From Candidatus Saccharimonadota bacterium (GTDB lineage Bacteria > Patescibacteriota > Saccharimonadia > Saccharimonadales > JAXHMH01), in contig JAXHMH010000002.1 of the NCBI GenBank assembly GCA_034521515.1, forward strand, positions 216,379-280,378: DNA of 64,000 nt, written 5' to 3'. Made by a program: the position numbers and the translations under genes. Numbering within the stretch: position 1 is the stretch's first letter; every line of letters begins with the position of its first letter. The notes under the pieces were generated by a model that saw only the letters and a program-made list of their open reading frames with translations, ran no database searches and had not been told where the DNA came from. Of the stretch, positions 15,549 to 53,771 are shown one piece after another.

Positions 15549-15649
15549 GTCAGCCCAGTAGTAGACTTTTGAGTTAGCGCGCTTTCGATGCAAACCTATT
15601 AGATTTCAGTTTTGCTGAAATCCTTCTCAAAAGCTCACTACTGGGTCAG
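15549..15649 (-). mobile_element. ~100-nt terminal-inverted-repeat hairpin element, copy 1 (MITE-like)
   Basis: GTCAG-CCCAGTAGTAGA...GCTCACTACTGGG-TCAG. The same termini are seen at 55974-56069. Flanked by TCAG/TCAG. Confidence 0.5.
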
Positions 15650-15675
15650 ATTATCTATAAGCCGGGTTCTGTTCA

Positions 15676-15742
15676 CCCCGCACCTTTTCGTGGCGACTTA
15701 TCAATCTGGTTGCAGACTGTTTCGCCCAGAAAAGGTGCGGGG
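15676..15742 (-). repeat. 66-67-nt hairpin module inside rnpB (P18 position)
   Basis: CCCCGCACC...CAGTCTG-CAAC-CAGATTG...GGTGCGGGG. Near-identical to 15915-15980. Confidence 0.75.
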
Positions 15743-15914
15743 GAGCCAATCATCTATCTAGCTCTAGGATTGTTCCTAGAATCGAGCGGATCTTATGATG
15801 CATCTTCGGCGGGGAACCGTATGAAGACACACCTCCTTGCAGCAGACAGGGTTTACCATTTTCCATCGTCACCGACAGGAACTGTGGGCTCTTACCCCAC
15901 TCGTTTCACCTTTA

Positions 15915-15980
15915 CCCCGCACCACTTCAAGGTGCTAAACAATCTGGTTGCAAACTGTATCGCCCTGAAGTGGTGCGGGG
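15915..15980 (-). repeat. 66-nt hairpin module inside rnpB (P8/P9 position)
   Basis: CCCCGCACC...CAGTTTG-CAAC-CAGATTG...GGTGCGGGG. Paralogue of 15676-15742. Confidence 0.75.
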
Positions 15981-16165
15981 TAGTTTCGTTTCTGTGGCAC
16001 TTTCCCTAGGGTTGCCCCCGGTCGCCGTTAGCGACTGTCTTCCCCTTCGCTGCCCGGACTTTCCTCCCCCTCACCAGCTTTCAGGAGAACAAGCCTTGGC
16101 TTGCTTCTGCCTGGAAAGTGGTGAGGGGGCGATCGGCCGATAGTCTGACCTTTTTATTATATCAT

Positions 16166-16843
16166 CTACTTCTTAGATTCAGCGTCGAGAACCTCATTCA
16201 CTTCAGAATCTGCTAACTTATTTAGCTTACGAGGTACATGTGTAAAAGTAACGCTTTTAAACTGTTCAACCAGCTTTTTTATCGCTTCGTGAATTGGCCA
16301 TAAGTCCCGGTTTTTAACCTTAAAAATACCCTTCATCTGATTAACAACAAGCATGCTGTCCATATAGGCGTCAATTTCTTGAGCCCCAAGTTTTAGCGCT
16401 TCTTCAAGCCCCAGTTTAAGAGACTGATATTCCGCTTGATTGTTGGTAGTTATGCCAAGATATTCACCACTTTTCTTTATGACCGTATCGTCTAAATCAA
16501 GTAGTACATAACCGGATGCTGATGGGCCAGGATTCCCGCGAGAACCACCATCAGAATACATTTTTATGTGCTTATGCGTCTTGGGTTTACTGGAACTTTT
16601 TTTGCCCCCATCAGCCACCAAGTCAATGGCTTTGGCTAGACTTTTATCTTTATCTGTCACCTTACCTTCGGCCTCGTGGGTACTAAGCCAAATTTTCACC
16701 TTATTCCACTCATTCTCCCATCTTGGATGGTGTTGCTGTTTTTCTGCCTCTTCTGCTACCGCCTGCATAAAACTAAAAGCTTCGTTAAAATCTTTAAACT
16801 TAAACTCTTTATATAGCTGGTTGTTTGTTTCTTGCCATTTCAT
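16166..16843 (-). CDS. Fusion protein: pterin-4a-carbinolamine dehydratase (PCD/DCoH)-like domain + RNase HI domain
   Basis: N-terminus [61 protein letters not shown] (PCD signature). C-terminus [19 protein letters not shown]...NNQAEYQSL...DSMLVVNQM...NKLADS (RNase H D-E-D-D type). Confidence 0.75.
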
Positions 16844-16963
16844 CTACCTACATTCTAACAGATTACTGACTGACAGAAGCTACGTTCTGCAACAAGCAGC
16901 ATGTCCTTACGTTTAAGACGATTTAGTTACAACTGTCTGCTAAAATACAGGGGTAATCTATAT

Positions 16964-17030
16964 CGGGGTGTGGCCCCGCCTGTCTGTCTGACAAGACGGG
17001 CTGGGTAGTTGGTAGCGCGTACGGCTGGGG
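16964..17030 (+). pseudogene. tRNA-Pro 5'-half fragment interrupted by a 32-nt insertion
   Basis: CGGGGTGTGGC (16964-74) and AGTTGGTAGCGCGTACGGCTGGGG (17007-30) are identical to the 5' half of the tRNA at 17168. The segment 16975-17006 replaces GC. There is no 3' half. Confidence 0.6.
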
Positions 17031-17167
17031 TGAGCACTGCCAGTGGCAGTGTGCAAGTAAATCTTCTCTTGGAAATTTATTTCCAAAGACGAAGTTTCGG
17101 GGTCGCTGGAGGCGACCGTAAGGGTTTCACGGCCTTTTATAGTTTAAGTTATACTAGCATTTGTTGT

Positions 17168-17243
17168 CGGGGTGTGGCGCAGTTGGTAGCGCGTACGGCT
17201 GGGGGCCGTGAGGTCGCAGGTTCAAGTCCTGTCACCCCGACCA
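17168..17243 (+). tRNA. tRNA-Pro (GGG), CCA encoded
   Basis: Manual cloverleaf: acceptor CGGGGTG/CACCCCG, D GCGC/GCGC, anticodon stem TACGG/CCGTG, loop CTGGGGG, T-arm GCAGG-TTCAAGT-CCTGT. 76 nt. Confidence 0.9.
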
Positions 17244-17261
17244 CGTCAGAAATAACTACAA

Positions 17262-17311
17262 CCTCGCCTGAAATTTTGGCAATCAAGTGACCAAAATTTG
17301 GCGAGATTTTT
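17262..17311 (+). terminator. Long-stem intrinsic terminator after tRNA-Pro
   Basis: CCTCGCCTGAAATTTTGG...CCAAAATTTGGCGAG followed by ATTTTTGTTTTT. Confidence 0.6.
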
Positions 17312-17493
17312 GTTTTTCTTCCTCTTCCGATTCACGAATCCTCTCGTGAATCGGGGCGGAAACCATATCCAGGTTTTTCCTGGGCTTTTTCTATTGGTGA
17401 CTGATTTGAACCTGCGTCGCCAGGTTAGTCAGGCGCGGAAGCCCTGGCGCTCTGTCCTGTCACTCAACCATATAAACAGCCTGTAATAGAAAA

Positions 17494-17524
17494 ACGTCCA
17501 AATCTTGCTGTTTGGACGTTTTTC
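17494..17524 (+). terminator. Intrinsic terminator closing an unassigned structured region
   Basis: ACGTCCAAA-tcttgctg-TTTGGACGT + TTTTC. Confidence 0.5.
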
Positions 17525-17682
17525 TTATGAGCTGAGGCCAGTATGACAACCTGGTAGTAATCCCCAGGTGGGTACCCGCACGATGCCACCACGGTGACAC
17601 ACGAATATTGAGTTCCCTAATGATAAGTAATCAGATTATCATTTCGCTGGCGTTCTCAGCCGTAAGCTCCATTATAAATTAC

Positions 17683-23705: not shown

Positions 23706-23945
23706 TGCCCACTCCTACTAAAAGGATGTTTCAAAACACCTACTTAAAACTTCGCCTGCTGGCATCGGTCATTTAAATACCGTGAGATAAGCATACCATA
23801 CTAGCATTATGATACTAGTACTTTTATATTGTTATTATTACACCTACCCTGTGGATTTACTTTTTATCTGTTTTTCTGTATGATTTACCCTGTTATACAG
23901 GGAATAGATCTATAAGTTACCCCCTCCCTATAACGACGGTAGCTC

Positions 23946-23966
23946 GGACGATTAGCTCATTTGGCT
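23946..23966 (+). pseudogene. tRNA-Val 5' fragment (20/21 nt identity)
   Basis: GGACGATTAGCTCATTTGGCT versus GGGCGATTAGCTCATTTGGCT at 24072. Pairs with 24007-24024 (AGCCAAATAGCAGCTAAT) as a long hairpin. Confidence 0.5.
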
Positions 23967-24071
23967 CACAGCAAAGCTGTAAAGAAGAAATGCCGCCAGA
24001 CGTCTTAGCCAAATAGCAGCTAATTTATTTTCAAAGACGGGTTGAGCGTACATTTAAGGTATTGTTTTGGT

Positions 24072-24148
24072 GAGGGCGATTAGCTCATTTGGCTAGAGCG
24101 CCACATTGACGTTGTGGAGGTGATAGGTTCGAATCCTATATCGCCCAC
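24072..24148 (+). tRNA. tRNA-Val (GAC), CCA encoded
   Basis: Manual cloverleaf: acceptor GGGCGAT/ATCGCCC, D GCTC/GAGC, anticodon stem CCACA/TGTGG, loop TTGACGT, T-arm ATAGG-TTCGAAT-CCTAT. 77 nt. Confidence 0.92.
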
Positions 24149-24179
24149 CAGATTAAAATCCGGTCTTTGCGACCGGTTT
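24131..24179 (+). repeat. 49-bp perfect direct repeat, copy 1 (tRNA-Val 3' 18 nt + its terminator)
   Basis: ATCCTATATCGCCCACCAGATTAAAATCCGGTCTTTGCGACCGGTTTTT, identical to 24308-24356. Confidence 0.95.
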
Positions 24180-24307
24180 TTGATTTGGTAAGTGCTATCT
24201 AGCTGAGAACCGTTCGGCGTAGCCGAGGTTCGGTGGAGTGCAGCGAAGAATAGAAAGCACCGAAGGTATTTTCTATTCGAACAAACGGAAAAGGACGTTT
24301 GTCCGCT

Positions 24308-24356
24308 ATCCTATATCGCCCACCAGATTAAAATCCGGTCTTTGCGACCGGTTTTT
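24308..24356 (+). repeat. 49-bp perfect direct repeat, copy 2 (att-like)
   Basis: Identical to 24131-24179. Lies 42 nt beyond the tgt stop and can serve as a terminator in both directions. Confidence 0.95.
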
Positions 24357-24398
24357 TGTTATGTGTAGTGCTCGTATAGTAAATCGATCAATTAATTA

Positions 24399-25670
24399 TT
24401 ATCCTAGGTAGGTTTCTGTAATCCGGTTTAAGTACCGAATATTATGGATAGACACCAGGCTGCCGGCCAAACTTTCCTTAACCTTAAACTGGTGGCGTAA
24501 GAACCCACGACTATAACCATAAGCGCACGTCGCACAATCACAACCCTCCTCAATCGGCCTATTATCATCAATAAATTGCGCGTTAGTTAAATGCATCTTC
24601 TCATCCCTCGCCCCAAAAACCTTGCCACAACGACTGCATGCGAGTACAGCGCTAGGAGAAACCGAAGCACAGACTGAGCCGTACTTAGGGTACGGTGAAG
24701 GAGTACTGGGGGTTTCGACACCGCGATGTACCGCAACCGGCTTCGGCGCAGGCGGCTCCGCCGTCTGGCAGGAAGCCGGGGTGCAGCCGTTGTGGACCCA
24801 GGCAGTGCCATGACGAGCATTCCGTGTAGCCAATACGCAGTCAACCATGTCAATCCCACACTCAATAGCAAACCTAAAATCTGTCGGATCACCAACCCCC
24901 ATCAGATAGTGAGGTCGTGATTTGTCATACAGTGGCGCCAAAAATTCTAGCATCTCGTGCATATCCTTGCGCGACTCGCCAACCGATAAGCCGCCAATTG
25001 CGATGCCGTCTACAGGCAGTGACTGTACAAACTCCAGGCTTTTTTGGCGCAATTGCTTATCTAGCCCTCCTTGTGCTATTCCAAACAACAGAGGTCGCTC
25101 ACCGGGTTTTAAGTCTTTTGTTTGCCTCTGGAACTCTGCAAGCGATCGCTCCAGCCAGCGATGAGTCCTATCAAAAGCCTCTTTAGTACGTAGCCTAGCC
25201 GTATCATCCAGCCCAGTCACATCATCAAAAGCCATGATAATATCTGCCCCTAGCTCAAGTTGTATCTGAATCGCCTTCTCTGGAGACAGGAAAACATTAT
25301 CACCGGACTTAGGATCCTTAAACGATACGCCATCTTCGGTAGTCTTGGTAATATGAGCCAGTGAAAACACCTGAAACCCACCAGAATCAGTCAAAATCGG
25401 ACCGTCCCACCGCGTAAACTCATGCAACCCACCAAGCTTCTTAACAGTTTTTTCGCCTGGTTGCAGGTGTAGATGATACGCATTGCCCAAAATGATTTGA
25501 GCCCCTGTTTCACGAACTTGCTGTGGCGATAAACCTTTTACAGCACCACGGGTTCCGACCGGCATAAAAACAGGGGTATATATATCACCAGCGCGTGTTT
25601 TCAGAGTGCCACGACGTGCATAAGTGCCGAGCATTGAGCTCGTAAAAAAACCGTCTTTGGAATTATTCAT
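24399..25670 (-). CDS. tgt: tRNA-guanine transglycosylase carrying a ~60-aa insertion (start trimmed to ATG 25670)
   Basis: ARRGTLKTRAGDIYTPVFMPVGT, LTDSGGFQV, GIAQGG, LMGVG, zinc site CDCATC...H. The track extension overlaps a divergent promoter. Confidence 0.85.
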   Translation of the reverse strand: MNNSKDGFFTSSMLGTYARRGTLKTRAGDIYTPVFMPVGTRGAVKGLSPQQVRETGAQIILGNAYHLHLQPGEKTVKKLGGLHEFTRWDGPILTDSGGFQVFSLAHITKTTEDGVSFKDPKSGDNVFLSPEKAIQIQLELGADIIMAFDDVTGLDDTARLRTKEAFDRTHRWLERSLAEFQRQTKDLKPGERPLLFGIAQGGLDKQLRQKSLEFVQSLPVDGIAIGGLSVGESRKDMHEMLEFLAPLYDKSRPHYLMGVGDPTDFRFAIECGIDMVDCVLATRNARHGTAWVHNGCTPASCQTAEPPAPKPVAVHRGVETPSTPSPYPKYGSVCASVSPSAVLACSRCGKVFGARDEKMHLTNAQFIDDNRPIEEGCDCATCAYGYSRGFLRHQFKVKESLAGSLVSIHNIRYLNRITETYLG

Positions 25671-25716
25671 CCCTGTTATTGTAGCACCTCGGTAACCGGC
25701 ACACTTAGCTAGATGC

Positions 25717-25745
25717 TTGACAAGTTGTGAATTGTGCCATATATT
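25717..25745 (+). promoter_or_regulatory. Near-consensus sigma70-type promoter divergent from tgt
   Basis: TTGACA (25717-22), 17-nt spacer, TATATT (25740-45). Confidence 0.5.
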
Positions 25746-25751
25746 ACCGTT

Positions 25752-25941
25752 CGTTAAACGGGAGGCACTCATACTTTGAGTACCAATTCGAGTTCGCTCG
25801 AGGGGTTTAAGTTGTTCTACGAAGAACTGACCTCAGCGAAATCAACAAGTCGTATACGACGCGTCCGACCTGCTCTTGCTAACAAGTAAGCTGCGTAGGA
25901 CGTCAAAGCCCCTGGCACATGAGAGAGTCAGGGGCTTTTTT
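25752..25941 (+). ncRNA. Candidate ~190-nt structured small RNA (unassigned family)
   Basis: Follows the 25717 promoter. Hairpins CCGTT-cgtta-AACGG, TCGAG-UUCG-CTCGA, GTTCT-acga-AGAAC, GTCG-tata-CGAC. Terminator GCCCCTG-loop-CAGGGGC + TTTTTT (25908-25941). Confidence 0.4.
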
Positions 25942-32713: not shown

Positions 32714-33622
32714 ATGCGATTTGAAAAAGCCAAAACTGATTTTTTAGAATATCTGGAGATTGAACAAAATCGCTCACAAAAAACCATTGCTAATTATGAC
32801 CATTATTTGACTCGTCTAGTTGATTTTGCCGGTGATATAAATGTCAGTGACATTAACCCAGAGCTTGTTCGCAAATGGCGGCTATGGCTCAATCGACTAG
32901 GTACCAATACGAGCGATGAGCTGCAAAAAACTACCCAAAATTACCACCTGATTGCCTTGCGCAGCTTTTTGAAATACTGCGCCAAACGAAATATTCCAGC
33001 GCTCACCGCCGATAAAATTGAGCTGGCACGCACCAAACGCAAACAAGTTACGTTCTTAACTGCCGAAGAAATTGAACAAATGTTCATGATGCCTAAGATT
33101 GAAACACTGCCAGGACTCCGCGATCGAGCTATCCTAGAGCTGTTGTTTTCATCTGGGTTACGTGTTTCTGAGCTGGTCGGACTCGATAAAGATCACGTTA
33201 ACCTCAAACGGCGTGAGTTTATGGTACGCGGTAAAGGCCAGAAAGACCGCCCGATTTTTATCAGTGAAGCTGCAGCGCACTGGGTGCAACAATATTTAGA
33301 CAAACGAACCGATACAACCAGACCCTTATTTATACGCTATAGTGGCAGCAAGCAAGTTGATACCAGTGGCAATTTCCACCGGCTTACGGCTCGCAGTATT
33401 CAGCGCATGGTCGCCCGCTACGCCCTGCTCGCCGGCATTACTAAACATGTTAGCCCGCATACACTTAGGCACTCCTTCGCAACTGATTTACTCATGAACG
33501 GCGCGGACTTGCGCTCTGTTCAGGCTATGCTAGGCCACAGCAACATATCCACCACACAAATATATACTCACGTCACTGACCCGCACCTAAAATCCGTCCA
33601 CGAAAAATTCCACCGCAAATAG
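32714..33622 (+). CDS. Tyrosine site-specific recombinase, XerC/XerD family
   Basis: SAM-like N-domain. Catalytic ...GLRVSEL..., HTLRHSFATDLL, GHSNISTTQIYTHV. Confidence 0.85.
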   Translation: MRFEKAKTDFLEYLEIEQNRSQKTIANYDHYLTRLVDFAGDINVSDINPELVRKWRLWLNRLGTNTSDELQKTTQNYHLIALRSFLKYCAKRNIPALTADKIELARTKRKQVTFLTAEEIEQMFMMPKIETLPGLRDRAILELLFSSGLRVSELVGLDKDHVNLKRREFMVRGKGQKDRPIFISEAAAHWVQQYLDKRTDTTRPLFIRYSGSKQVDTSGNFHRLTARSIQRMVARYALLAGITKHVSPHTLRHSFATDLLMNGADLRSVQAMLGHSNISTTQIYTHVTDPHLKSVHEKFHRK

Positions 33623-52560: not shown

Positions 52561-53328
52561 TTATTGCGTCTTTTTTAATAGATAAAACCGCTCTTGGTTG
52601 CCCTTAGCACCGGCAATCTCAGAATCGGCCTTTTCGGCAATAATGAACAACTTTTTTATCCAACTCTCAAGGTGTTGGAGCGTCTCTCGGCGCATTTTAT
52701 CGTTCTTAATAACACCCCTATGCTTGAGCCCTGCAGCCTGAGCTTCGAACTGTGGTTTTGCCATGGCGACAAGGATTGAGTTAGGAGACATGAGCATTGA
52801 GACATGAGGCAGTACATCACGCAGTGAGATAAAGCTGACGTCGATGACTATAATGTCTGGTATGTCAATGTGTACACCCTTCTCATCACCCACTGCTTCA
52901 TTCTCAGCTTGGCGCAGCCGGACATTCCTAATGTCGGTTTGTTCGTGTAACTCAACGTTCGGGTTAGTACGTAAATTAGGGTGTAGCTGATTTGTGCCAA
53001 CATCTACAGCAATGACTTTTTTAGCGCCATGTCTAAGTGCATAATCGGTAAATCCACCAGTGCTAGATCCGACATCCAGCACTACCTTGTCATGAAAATT
53101 AAGCTGAAATTTATCAGCCACTGCTGCTAGCTTTAGCCCAGCGCGCGAAACATATTGCTGATCAATTTTTAAGTCGATCTTCTGACCATCGGTCACAAAC
53201 TGCCCTGGCTTTCGTACAACCTGCTTGTCAACGCTAACGTGCCCAAGCTTAATGTAGCTTTCAGCCTGGCTTCTAGTTGCAATAAGACCTTTGGCTACAA
53301 TTGCCTGATCAAGCCTCTGTCGCTTCAT
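52561..53328 (-). CDS. tlyA: TlyA-family rRNA 2'-O-methyltransferase
   Basis: S4 domain (RLDQAIVAKGLIATRSQAESYI) + FtsJ-type SAM site (LDVGSSTGGFTDY). Confidence 0.85.
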   Translation of the reverse strand: MKRQRLDQAIVAKGLIATRSQAESYIKLGHVSVDKQVVRKPGQFVTDGQKIDLKIDQQYVSRAGLKLAAVADKFQLNFHDKVVLDVGSSTGGFTDYALRHGAKKVIAVDVGTNQLHPNLRTNPNVELHEQTDIRNVRLRQAENEAVGDEKGVHIDIPDIIVIDVSFISLRDVLPHVSMLMSPNSILVAMAKPQFEAQAAGLKHRGVIKNDKMRRETLQHLESWIKKLFIIAEKADSEIAGAKGNQERFYLLKKTQ

Positions 53329-53771
53329 AACTTAACCTCGGCAATAATCTGACGGTAACCTTGCGATTGAGCCTCTGCTATATGAATCGTGTCTATATTC
53401 AGTTCACCTTCAAAACCACGACCTGCTTTTTGGGTTATGTGAGGGGTATAGTTATTACCGATATACCTGCCCTTCACTTCCCATCCTTGCTCCTCAACAG
53501 CACTAAGCAAGGTTTTGTGCAGTGTCTGCAGTTGGGATGTGATTTCTAGTTTCATAACCGGTAAGTTACCTTTTAGGCCGTAATAACCACGCTCTGTAGT
53601 TGAAACAGAACAGGGTCTAGTACTGTTTGTTGCGACACGAACGCAAGCTTCAACTGCTTTCCCGTCCGGTGCCTCAAACCAGGGCAATAAGGTTACATGC
53701 AACGGCCATAACGTAAATCGCTGTCCGACTTTAACAGGATCGACCATATAAACAATTAAGTACTGTCCCAT
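53325..53771 (-). CDS. 2H-phosphoesterase-like protein (two HxT motifs)
   Basis: HVTLLPWF and TPHITQK. 148 aa. Confidence 0.5.
   Translation of the reverse strand: MGQYLIVYMVDPVKVGQRFTLWPLHVTLLPWFEAPDGKAVEACVRVATNSTRPCSVSTTERGYYGLKGNLPVMKLEITSQLQTLHKTLLSAVEEQGWEVKGRYIGNNYTPHITQKAGRGFEGELNIDTIHIAEAQSQGYRQIIAEVKL

Follow-up and report, generated by a model that had tools for sequence, protein, structure and literature searches.

The window analysed here, a 64-kb stretch of DNA, is part of the core chromosome of a Saccharibacterium and carries thrS, tgt, gyrA/B, type IV pilus genes, ftsK and the genes for RNase J and PNPase. We focused on an intact tRNA-Val(GAC) gene, its flanks and the neighbouring tgt gene (Table 1). 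The arrangement of tRNA-Val(GAC) beside tgt was conserved across Saccharibacteria loci, in which usually a terminator alone separates the two genes. The TGT of the window was identical to protein P0001 from a Saccharibacteria MAG contig of 706 kb (100% identity over 93% of the longer, 457-aa ORF, the annotated start being different), and the closest other TGT was only 65% identical. The species thus has no close relative in the collections, and no empty site or copy-number variant was seen for the tRNA-Val locus of the window itself.

Table 1. Features of the tRNA-Val and tRNA-Pro sites of the window, in window coordinates
Feature	Position	Strand	Evidence
Upstream 5' copy of tRNA-Pro(GGG): positions 1-11, 32-nt insertion, positions 14-37 exact	16964..17030	+	blastn-short 24/24, E = 1e-8
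Type-A element, three helices, abuts the tRNA-Pro 5' copy	17026..17120	+	R1 99.4 bits; covariation
Downstream unit at tRNA-Pro: antisense tail copy 17395-17416, sense T-stem 17418-17426, 28-nt insert 17427-17454, 3' tail copy 17455-17470	17395..17470	+	
Upstream 5' copy of tRNA-Val, positions 1-21, 20/21 identical	23946..23966	+	repeat finding; blastn-short 18/18; local alignment z = 12.9, 0/300 shuffles
Spacer from the 5' copy to intact tRNA-Val; decayed type-A element possible	23967..24073	+	weak matches
Intact tRNA-Val(GAC), encoded CCA	24074..24150	+	ARAGORN; Rfam tRNA 65.5 bits
Repeat copy 1: tRNA 60-77 + 31-nt trailer; terminator 1 hairpin 24160-24176, T-run to 24181	24133..24181	+	repeat and terminator scans
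Insert leader	24182..24226	+	fold
Type-B core: GGTTCG, GTGGAGTGCAGCGAAG, long hairpin 24248-24278, GGAAAAGGAC-GTTT-GTCCGCT up to the tail-copy junction	24227..24307	+	alignments to L008, L141
Repeat copy 2: tRNA-Val 60-77 (24308-24325) + trailer; terminator 2 hairpin 24335-24351	24308..24356	+	repeat and terminator scans
tgt (queuine tRNA-ribosyltransferase), convergent neighbour, outside the element	24399..25772	-	Pfam PF01702, E = 1e-123

Repeat finding, combined with exact and three-mismatch pattern searches, revealed a 49-nt exact direct repeat, ATCCTATATCGCCCACCAGATTAAAATCCGGTCTTTGCGACCGGTTTTT, with two copies in the 64-kb window at a spacing of 175 nt; it found matches in 0 of 100 shuffles. 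The repeat begins in the T-loop of tRNA-Val and is not extendable, the preceding bases being a and t and the following bases g and t. A preliminary description of this DNA had reported a perfect 49-bp repeat that duplicates the 3' segment of the tRNA together with its terminator, and our analysis bore this out, although copy 1, placed there at 24131-24179, lies 2 nt further rightward, and the enclosed DNA (24182-24307) measures 126 bp instead of 128 bp. Both copies contain a predicted intrinsic terminator (CCGGTC-TTTGC-GACCGG followed by T5/T6; 24160-24181 and 24335-24356) that scores on both strands. Copy 2 lies 43 nt past the tgt stop, with its terminator predicted on the tgt strand, and, as had been suggested, probably doubles as the terminator of that convergent gene. 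It is highly improbable that the arrangement is an assembly artefact or a simple local tandem duplication without an element. The repeat is perfect and its source is a metagenome-assembled genome, but the enclosed 126 bp duplicates nothing nearby, homologous inserts with the same junctions were found in independent assemblies from other samples, and assemblers usually collapse repeats and do not create them.

The minimum-free-energy fold of the insert reached -42.9 kcal/mol (z = -3.3; 1 of 200 shuffles was equally good) and contained all three hairpins noted previously. The enclosed DNA was also correctly described as lacking an integrase, as the 126 bp hold no complete ORF of at least 50 aa; a 57-aa ORF (24238-24411) begins within the insert and exits through copy 2. 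In the leader, GAACC (24207-24211) pairs with GGTTC (24227-24231) around a small hairpin, TTCGGC-GTA-GCCGA (24213-24226). This pairing, the first of the three hairpins, is the counterpart of the antisense/sense T-loop hairpin in the general layout set out below, and hairpins like it were also present in the L141, L121, L040 and L033 units (L numbers denote loci). TGG (24186-24188) together with GAACC may represent what is left of an antisense copy of the tRNA tail; this antisense arm, clear in other units, was not significant in the tRNA-Val unit of the window (z = 0.4). The insert joins the tail copy at GTCCGCT/ATCCTAT, the tail copy running from tRNA position 60.

Searches with Rfam 15, permissive thresholds included, matched only tRNA in 23740-24420 and 16850-17650, the other hits being at chance level, and Intron_gpI (RF00028) was not matched at the gathering threshold, nor with E values up to 10. 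A group I intron was rejected on this result and on the nature of the interrupted copy, which comprises just the 3' part of a tRNA next to the intact gene. Inspection by eye did not show the core motifs of hammerhead, twister, HDV-like, bridge-RNA or tmRNA-like RNAs, and these candidates were set aside. A literature search on Saccharibacteria tRNA introns, split tRNAs, T-loop insertions and the conserved 14-mer returned only a group I intron paper, which does not contain these elements.

An additional tRNA-derived segment, overlooked in the preliminary description, was found upstream of the gene: a 5' copy of tRNA-Val that starts 128 nt before it and stops within the D-loop. The following spacer opens with a small hairpin, CACAGC-AAA-GCTGT (23967-23980), and its stretch 24022-24039 resembles the 3' side of helix P2 of type A, an element family present at the tRNA-Pro site of the window (by blastn, 17/18 with window 17074-17091 and 16/18 with the type-A copies of L185, L156 and L140, at E values of only 0.02-0.3). 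The spacer, in which the type-A covariance model R1 found no match, may be a decayed type-A remnant. At the tRNA-Pro(GGG) gene (17168-17243), the 5' copy ends in the anticodon loop, and the type-A element abutting it lies 48 nt before the intact tRNA; this element was 81% identical over 74 nt (E = 1e-14) to L007 5324-5397, which precedes a tRNA-Val tail copy. In the downstream unit of the same gene, the antisense arm had z = 5.8 (0/300 shuffles) and the tail copy z = 3.3 (5/300 shuffles). A terminator-like hairpin past this unit (17490-17523) was recognised by eye and is absent from the terminator-scan output. The remaining four tRNAs of the window, each scanned against its own flanks, had no flanking tRNA copies.

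The type-A element is about 95 nt long, forms three helices and is better conserved than the second family, type B. We used a pattern from 17026-17120 in one metagenome scan, which returned 105 loci with about 45 true members; contig taxonomy was checked for the five metagenome contigs syntenic with the window. An alignment of 39 type-A sequences showed the three helices with 20 of 35 pairs compensated. The covariance model R1, with three helices and the conserved joints GUGAR, UGCAAGGAAA and UUUCGGG, identified 65 copies in 49 sources. In these copies, whose alignment is fitted to the model, 96% of cells were paired compared to 33-49% in slid controls, and compensatory change was detected in 31 of 35 pairs, the observed values being reached by 0 of 500 shuffles in the same model-fitted alignment. 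The frequent G-U pairs and the strand-specific covariation indicate that the folded form is that of the tRNA-sense strand. All 47 of the copies within 300 nt of an ARAGORN tRNA were on the strand of that tRNA (27 upstream, 20 downstream), and type-A copies adjoin at least 14 tRNA isotypes. Two copies hold a nested second copy, cleanly inserted after CGGG without duplication. One type-A copy, in L128, lies just 3' of a protein-coding gene and is flanked by a 21-nt direct repeat of the 3' end of that gene. The 80 IMG/VR contigs containing a conserved 15-mer gave no R1 match, and the 15-mer hits were chance. The mapped segments show that type A has the layout of type B plus a mirror-image upstream form.

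Applied to the window with filters off, R1 found nothing at 24182-24307 and matched only 17026-17120. Since R1 missed the insert beside tRNA-Val, this insert is not type A, and a single-family explanation was dropped. We defined type B as the family of inserts like window 24182-24307. Global alignment of the window unit with the L008 unit, which lies beside tRNA-Asp, gave z = 8.6, and with the second unit of L141, which follows a type-A unit, z = 6.0 (0/500 shuffles each). The blocks in common were GGTTCG(G/A)TG(G/T)AG, a GCA..GAAG hairpin and G(G/A)AAAAGGAC-loop-GTCCGCTA, and the window fits the resulting core pattern of GGTTCG, a GCA-N-C/A-GAAG hairpin and GRAAAAGGAC-loop-GTCCGCTA. In L008 and L141, GTCCGCTA abuts the 3' strand of the T-stem in the tail copy of their own tRNA. 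The window insert likewise occupies the type-B position, past the terminator of the intact tRNA, on the same strand and with its 3' end abutting a tail copy that starts in the T-loop. In type B the T-loop is broken at about positions 57-60, and in type A at 53-55.

A covariance model, R2, was built from three sequences (window, L008, L141). It scored the window, one of its own three source sequences, at 84 bits, and its only independent match was L121 (31.7 bits), directly after a type-A copy; weaker relatives adjoin Asp, Gly and Tyr tRNAs. Type-B membership thus consists of three good sequences and a few weaker ones. With these three good sequences, compensatory change was seen in 3 of 18 predicted pairs of the type-B fold, and the middle hairpin varies in length. 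Type-B inserts from different tRNAs were not alignable with MAFFT alone. On sequence grounds, these comparisons show that the window insert is a member of a recurrent family that adjoins various tRNAs in various Saccharibacteria and in every case lies on the strand of the tRNA.

We scanned tRNAs against their own flanks in Saccharibacteria loci for same-strand 3'-end copies downstream, a few hundred bases away or less. A common layout was found, consisting of the intact tRNA, a terminator, a GAACC..GGTTCG hairpin, a structured insert, a tail copy started in the T-loop and a second terminator. It was present at tRNA-Val in L007, L011, L035 and L082, and also at Asp, Thr, Gly, Gln, Arg, Tyr, Trp, Leu, Lys, Met, Ile, Ser and His tRNAs; examples with the tail copy are tRNA-Asp in L040, L033 and L007 and tRNA-Thr in L022. 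In downstream units the order is terminator, antisense tail copy (often TGG-started), turn, sense T-stem, element, tail to CCA and second terminator, and the tail copy begins exactly at the element end, at tRNA positions 55-60. It ends exactly at CCA in most units and continues through the terminator in the window (31 nt), L082 (29), L114 (37), L035 (at least 45) and also L143. In upstream units, a tRNA copy running from position 1 to a loop abuts the 5' end of the element, ending in the D-arm (about 23), in the anticodon loop (37) or in the T-stem (48-54). On the 3' side of the element follow a few tRNA positions and then a short antisense stretch complementary to both flanks, and the intact tRNA starts about 35-100 nt beyond the element. 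L007, like the window, has an upstream 5' tRNA copy too. Tandem units were found, as were units flanking a single tRNA on its two sides, and each unit closes with its own terminator.

The occupancy of these sites varied. L004 and L007 are close relatives whose tRNA-Val is identical and which also have the upstream unit and the downstream flank in common; a 247-bp downstream unit, which is type A, is present in L007 only. About 28 of 36 Saccharibacteria tRNA-Val loci had no unit. The comparison shows a sporadic distribution, in which units of this kind are present or absent between close relatives. Within the window, 64 kb of a genome of about 706 kb, we found one type-A and one type-B copy, and the 41 Saccharibacteria tgt loci contained only one type-A copy; for a mobile element this copy number is low. 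At a syntenic tRNA-Pro site in six related contigs, type-A elements were 60-90% identical, compared to 10-56% for the adjoining spacer and 41-55% for the downstream DNA. Conservation so far above that of the flanking spacers indicates that the fold is important, be it in movement or in some function of the host. The 19-nt tail copy of L007 has stayed identical to the tRNA, although the two terminators have diverged. The conservation of element and tail fits a fold needed for propagation together with gene conversion by the neighbouring tRNA, and equally fits a function kept by the host.

The units might accordingly be read as host-selected small RNAs or cis-acting RNA modules that are not now mobile, the insert being joined to a 3' end that resembles that of a tRNA (T-stem, acceptor strand, CCA) and has a terminator of its own. 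Such an RNA might be made by read-through of the tRNA, processed by tRNA-end enzymes and inherited vertically, with identity maintained through selection or gene conversion. Both the tRNA-Pro site and the L007 tail copy speak for this account, as do the covarying helices with G-U pairs specific to the tRNA-sense strand, the own terminator of every unit and the window insert that folds better than its shuffles. It is nevertheless set back by the terminator and promoter scan, in which no promoter-like site was found between terminator 1 and the insert, by the sporadic distribution with an empty site in L004, and by the want of a matching Rfam family. Nested and tandem copies beside many different tRNAs resemble insertion dynamics. 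Moreover, two unrelated sequence families with one layout point to a process rather than to one RNA function. We consider a purely host-kept RNA unlikely. The insert is a candidate for the small RNA gene between two terminators that the preliminary description had listed as an option.

A direct repeat of the 3' part of a tRNA that starts in the T-loop is the textbook signature of an integrase, and the window repeat, exact over 49 nt from tRNA position 60 and flanking the insert, has this form. It could thus be a classical attL/attR scar, left by a tyrosine-integrase island or prophage that entered the T-loop of tRNA-Val and was later deleted to 126 bp. The two trailers differ in several units, as expected if one of them is element-derived, and the window encodes a Xer-like tyrosine recombinase (32714-33622, the only such gene in it). 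Yet by our reading of its size and domain make-up this recombinase resembles a housekeeping Xer, and a scan of 56 window ORFs found core genes and no phage gene, reverse transcriptase, transposase or integrase cargo. Insert sizes among the approximately 40 units examined clustered at about 100-250 bp, and none of these units enclosed a gene or a larger gene-carrying insert. The units also have a conserved structured family common to different tRNA targets, unlike random deletion remnants; mirror-image upstream units with 5' tRNA copies and antisense segments are not integrase products; and the strong RNA-like covariation of the sister family, type A, would be left unexplained.

The database searches bear on the same question. 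The insert, the type-A site and short patterns had no similarity to phages, plasmids or IMG/VR contigs. The comparison of the insert with other sequences proposed in the preliminary description was thus negative for phages and plasmids, and it was positive for relatives in Saccharibacteria (L008, L141, L121). The remnant of a deleted island, one of three options raised there, found no backing, as no relative with a larger, gene-carrying insert was found and the longer gaps between tgt and tRNA-Val hold ordinary ORFs. In Saccharibacteria loci with tRNA-Val 1-1.5 kb from tgt, no integrase was seen among these ORFs, two of which have what we take, by eye, to be beta-ketoacyl-synthase-like N-termini. 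An att scar is therefore an improbable origin of the repeat.

Our preferred reading, to which we assign a probability of about 0.55, is that a miniature, non-coding cassette was inserted at the T-loop of tRNA-Val and that the 49-bp repeat is the target duplication flanking it. A non-autonomous mini-element had been one of the earlier options, and it is the best of the three given the recurrent family at different tRNAs and the filled and empty sites of L007 and L004. The element would enter the tRNA gene at the T-loop, and the tail with its terminator would be duplicated by the insertion or carried in by the element, so that an intact tRNA-Val is kept. Since insertion into the sole functional copy of a tRNA would be lethal, only partial copies would carry elements, and since the element encodes nothing, the enzyme would act in trans. 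One candidate is a host tyrosine recombinase of the Xer type that would act on a folded att-like site, in which a duplex copy of the target would be restored by the antisense arm. Another would be insertion at the RNA level, in the manner of an intron, followed by reverse transcription into DNA; copies bounded by CCA and antisense arms started by TGG hint at reverse transcription, although the window yielded no reverse transcriptase. The third candidate is a transposase of single-strand DNA. As origins of the antisense arms, snap-back reverse transcription, hairpin-opening footprints, single-crossover circles and twin priming were considered and rejected, since the segment order that each would give differs from the one observed. 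The antisense tRNA segments are not explained by any mechanism known to us.

We compared the units with known systems. Like tRNA-targeting integrative elements, they have a 3' tRNA repeat that starts in a loop, leave the tRNA intact and vary in presence between relatives. Unlike these elements, they have no integrase or other gene, measure about 100-250 bp, contain a conserved folded module and include mirror-image upstream forms with 5' copies and antisense tRNA segments. Group I introns that interrupt genes for tRNAs are likewise structured RNA insertions in tRNA loops of the same phylum, and the nested copies recall twintrons. However, such introns lie at position 35/36 and the units mostly at the T-loop; the units occupy partial tRNA copies beside an intact gene, never an otherwise complete tRNA, and with about 80-95 nt they are, to our knowledge, smaller than any group I intron. 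MITEs, IS200/IS605-derived and REP-like elements are also short, non-coding and hairpin-rich, with strand-specific, site-selective clean insertion, which the nested copies inserted after GGG recall and which would depend on an enzyme acting in trans. The units differ from them in having no terminal inverted repeats, long and variable target duplications (18-70 nt), a tight restriction to tRNA genes and a low copy number, with no transposase in the window.

Two further systems offer likenesses. Folded single-strand att sites, such as integron attC and the attP of CTX phage used by XerCD, resemble the units in their inverted target copies, which could fold into a duplex mimic with a bulged part, in strand specificity and in helices that would tolerate G-T/G-U pairs, and Xer and FtsK genes are present in the window. 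The units, by contrast, have no cassette genes, and the resemblance is an analogy. The Neurospora mitochondrial retroplasmid integrates via tRNA-primed hybrid cDNAs. Its possible counterpart in the units would be the tRNA copies that in many units end exactly at CCA and the antisense arms that start with TGG, as copying from the 3' end of a mature tRNA would give. The window, however, has no reverse transcriptase, and its unit, like some others, runs through the terminator.

A more far-reaching interpretation, which we put forward as speculation and hold to be rather unlikely, is that types A and B together form a new class of small RNA-structured mobile elements that invade exposed T-, anticodon and D-loops at the RNA or ssDNA level and are written back beside the gene, or alternatively are host-kept modules for the swapping or repair of tRNA ends. 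Under this interpretation, a surviving insertion would leave a partial direct and antisense copy of the tRNA, a guide-like antisense strand would zip the flanks across the element, and the 49-bp repeat would be the footprint of a ribozyme-like or folded-att-site mechanism without an element-encoded protein.

The genomes of Saccharibacteria and other Patescibacteria are tiny and subject to strong deletion pressure. In such reduced genomes, some tRNA genes are flanked by non-coding units of 100-250 bp, sometimes on both sides and in tandem, each made up of a conserved folded module together with pieces of the neighbouring tRNA in direct and inverted orientation. The type-A and type-B inserts apparently constitute an undescribed class of tRNA-flanking structured inserts in Saccharibacteria, and inserts of this kind are probably wider in Patescibacteria. 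With the R1 and R2 models, and chiefly with that for type A, the question can be put to the test in cultivated Saccharibacteria. If the units are mobile, they would represent an unnoticed class of protein-free, tRNA-targeting elements and a source of pseudo-tRNA fragments that mislead annotation and att-site prediction. If they are kept by the host, they would be new tRNA-linked RNAs in a phylum with unusual RNA biology, whose oddities include tRNA and rRNA genes with introns and an RNase P RNA that is enlarged.

Units of this class also occur beyond the tRNA-Val locus, elsewhere in the window and in contigs from other sources (L-handles); they are listed here together with other features of the window. 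Type A is the ~95-nt three-helix element family and type B the family of the tRNA-Val T-loop insert, both defined in this analysis.

Elements, units and other features (window positions unless an L-handle is given)
Feature	Position	Strand	Remarks
RNase P RNA match	15642-16148	-	507 nt vs 367-position model
Fusion ORF	16166-16843	-	pterin-4a-carbinolamine dehydratase domain + RNase H-like (RVT_3/RNase_H) domain
tRNA-Pro upstream unit	within 16964-17243		5' copy, then well-conserved type-A element
tRNA-Pro downstream unit	17395-17523		antisense arm, 28-nt mini-insert, 3' tail copy
tgt	24399-25772	-	longest ORF 457 aa
Tyrosine recombinase	32714-33622	+	Phage_integrase + SAM-like N-terminal domain, 302 aa
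2'-5' RNA ligase superfamily protein	53325-53771	-	surrounded by translation and RNA-turnover genes
Nested type-A elements	L137 275-364; L106 5855-5930	-; -
Type-A element, no tRNA alongside	L128 1305-1400	-	directly downstream of protein-coding gene
Type-A unit, then directly type-B unit	L141 5787-6048; L121 9770-10053	-; +
Type-A variants	L094 796-892; L153 12811-12905		CGAG .. CGCAAGG

Both sides of tRNA-Pro(GGG) in the window are occupied by units of the same class, and the 5' copy of the upstream unit carries a 32-nt insertion in its D-loop. The fusion ORF lies 120 nt from this upstream unit, and the RNase P RNA, which carries large insertions given the length of its match relative to the model, lies ~800 nt from the tRNA-Pro units. 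At the tRNA-Val locus, the longest ORF of the convergent tgt gene exceeds the deposited protein (423 aa) by 34 codons, and the real start is probably internal to it.

In L137 and L106, a diverged second type-A-like element sits within the third helix of a type-A element, immediately after CGGG, with neither a flanking duplication nor an antisense arm at the insertion. A direct repeat of 21 nt (GGTGGTCGCGAAAAAATCTAA) brackets the L128 element; it consists of the last codons and stop of the adjoining gene, which by eye looks like a seryl-tRNA synthetase gene. In the L141 tandem, one tRNA-like 3' end is present twice, once with the type-A unit and once with the type-B unit. ARAGORN in tRNA-only mode detected no tRNA gene adjoining the L141 and L121 tandems, so the RNA that hosts them may be a tmRNA or a tRNA with an intron.

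The L094 and L153 variants have C in place of T in both TGAG and TGCAAGG, and no base pair is predicted between these two co-varying positions. In the antisense arms of L119 and L168, the element-proximal part agrees with the neighbouring tRNA and the distal part, the acceptor-strand complement, disagrees with it, as if the latter had originated in another tRNA.

The sole tyrosine recombinase of the window looks Xer-like from its size and domains, and is a candidate for an enzyme that would act on the elements in trans. If the elements work at the RNA level, the 2'-5' RNA ligase superfamily protein could matter.
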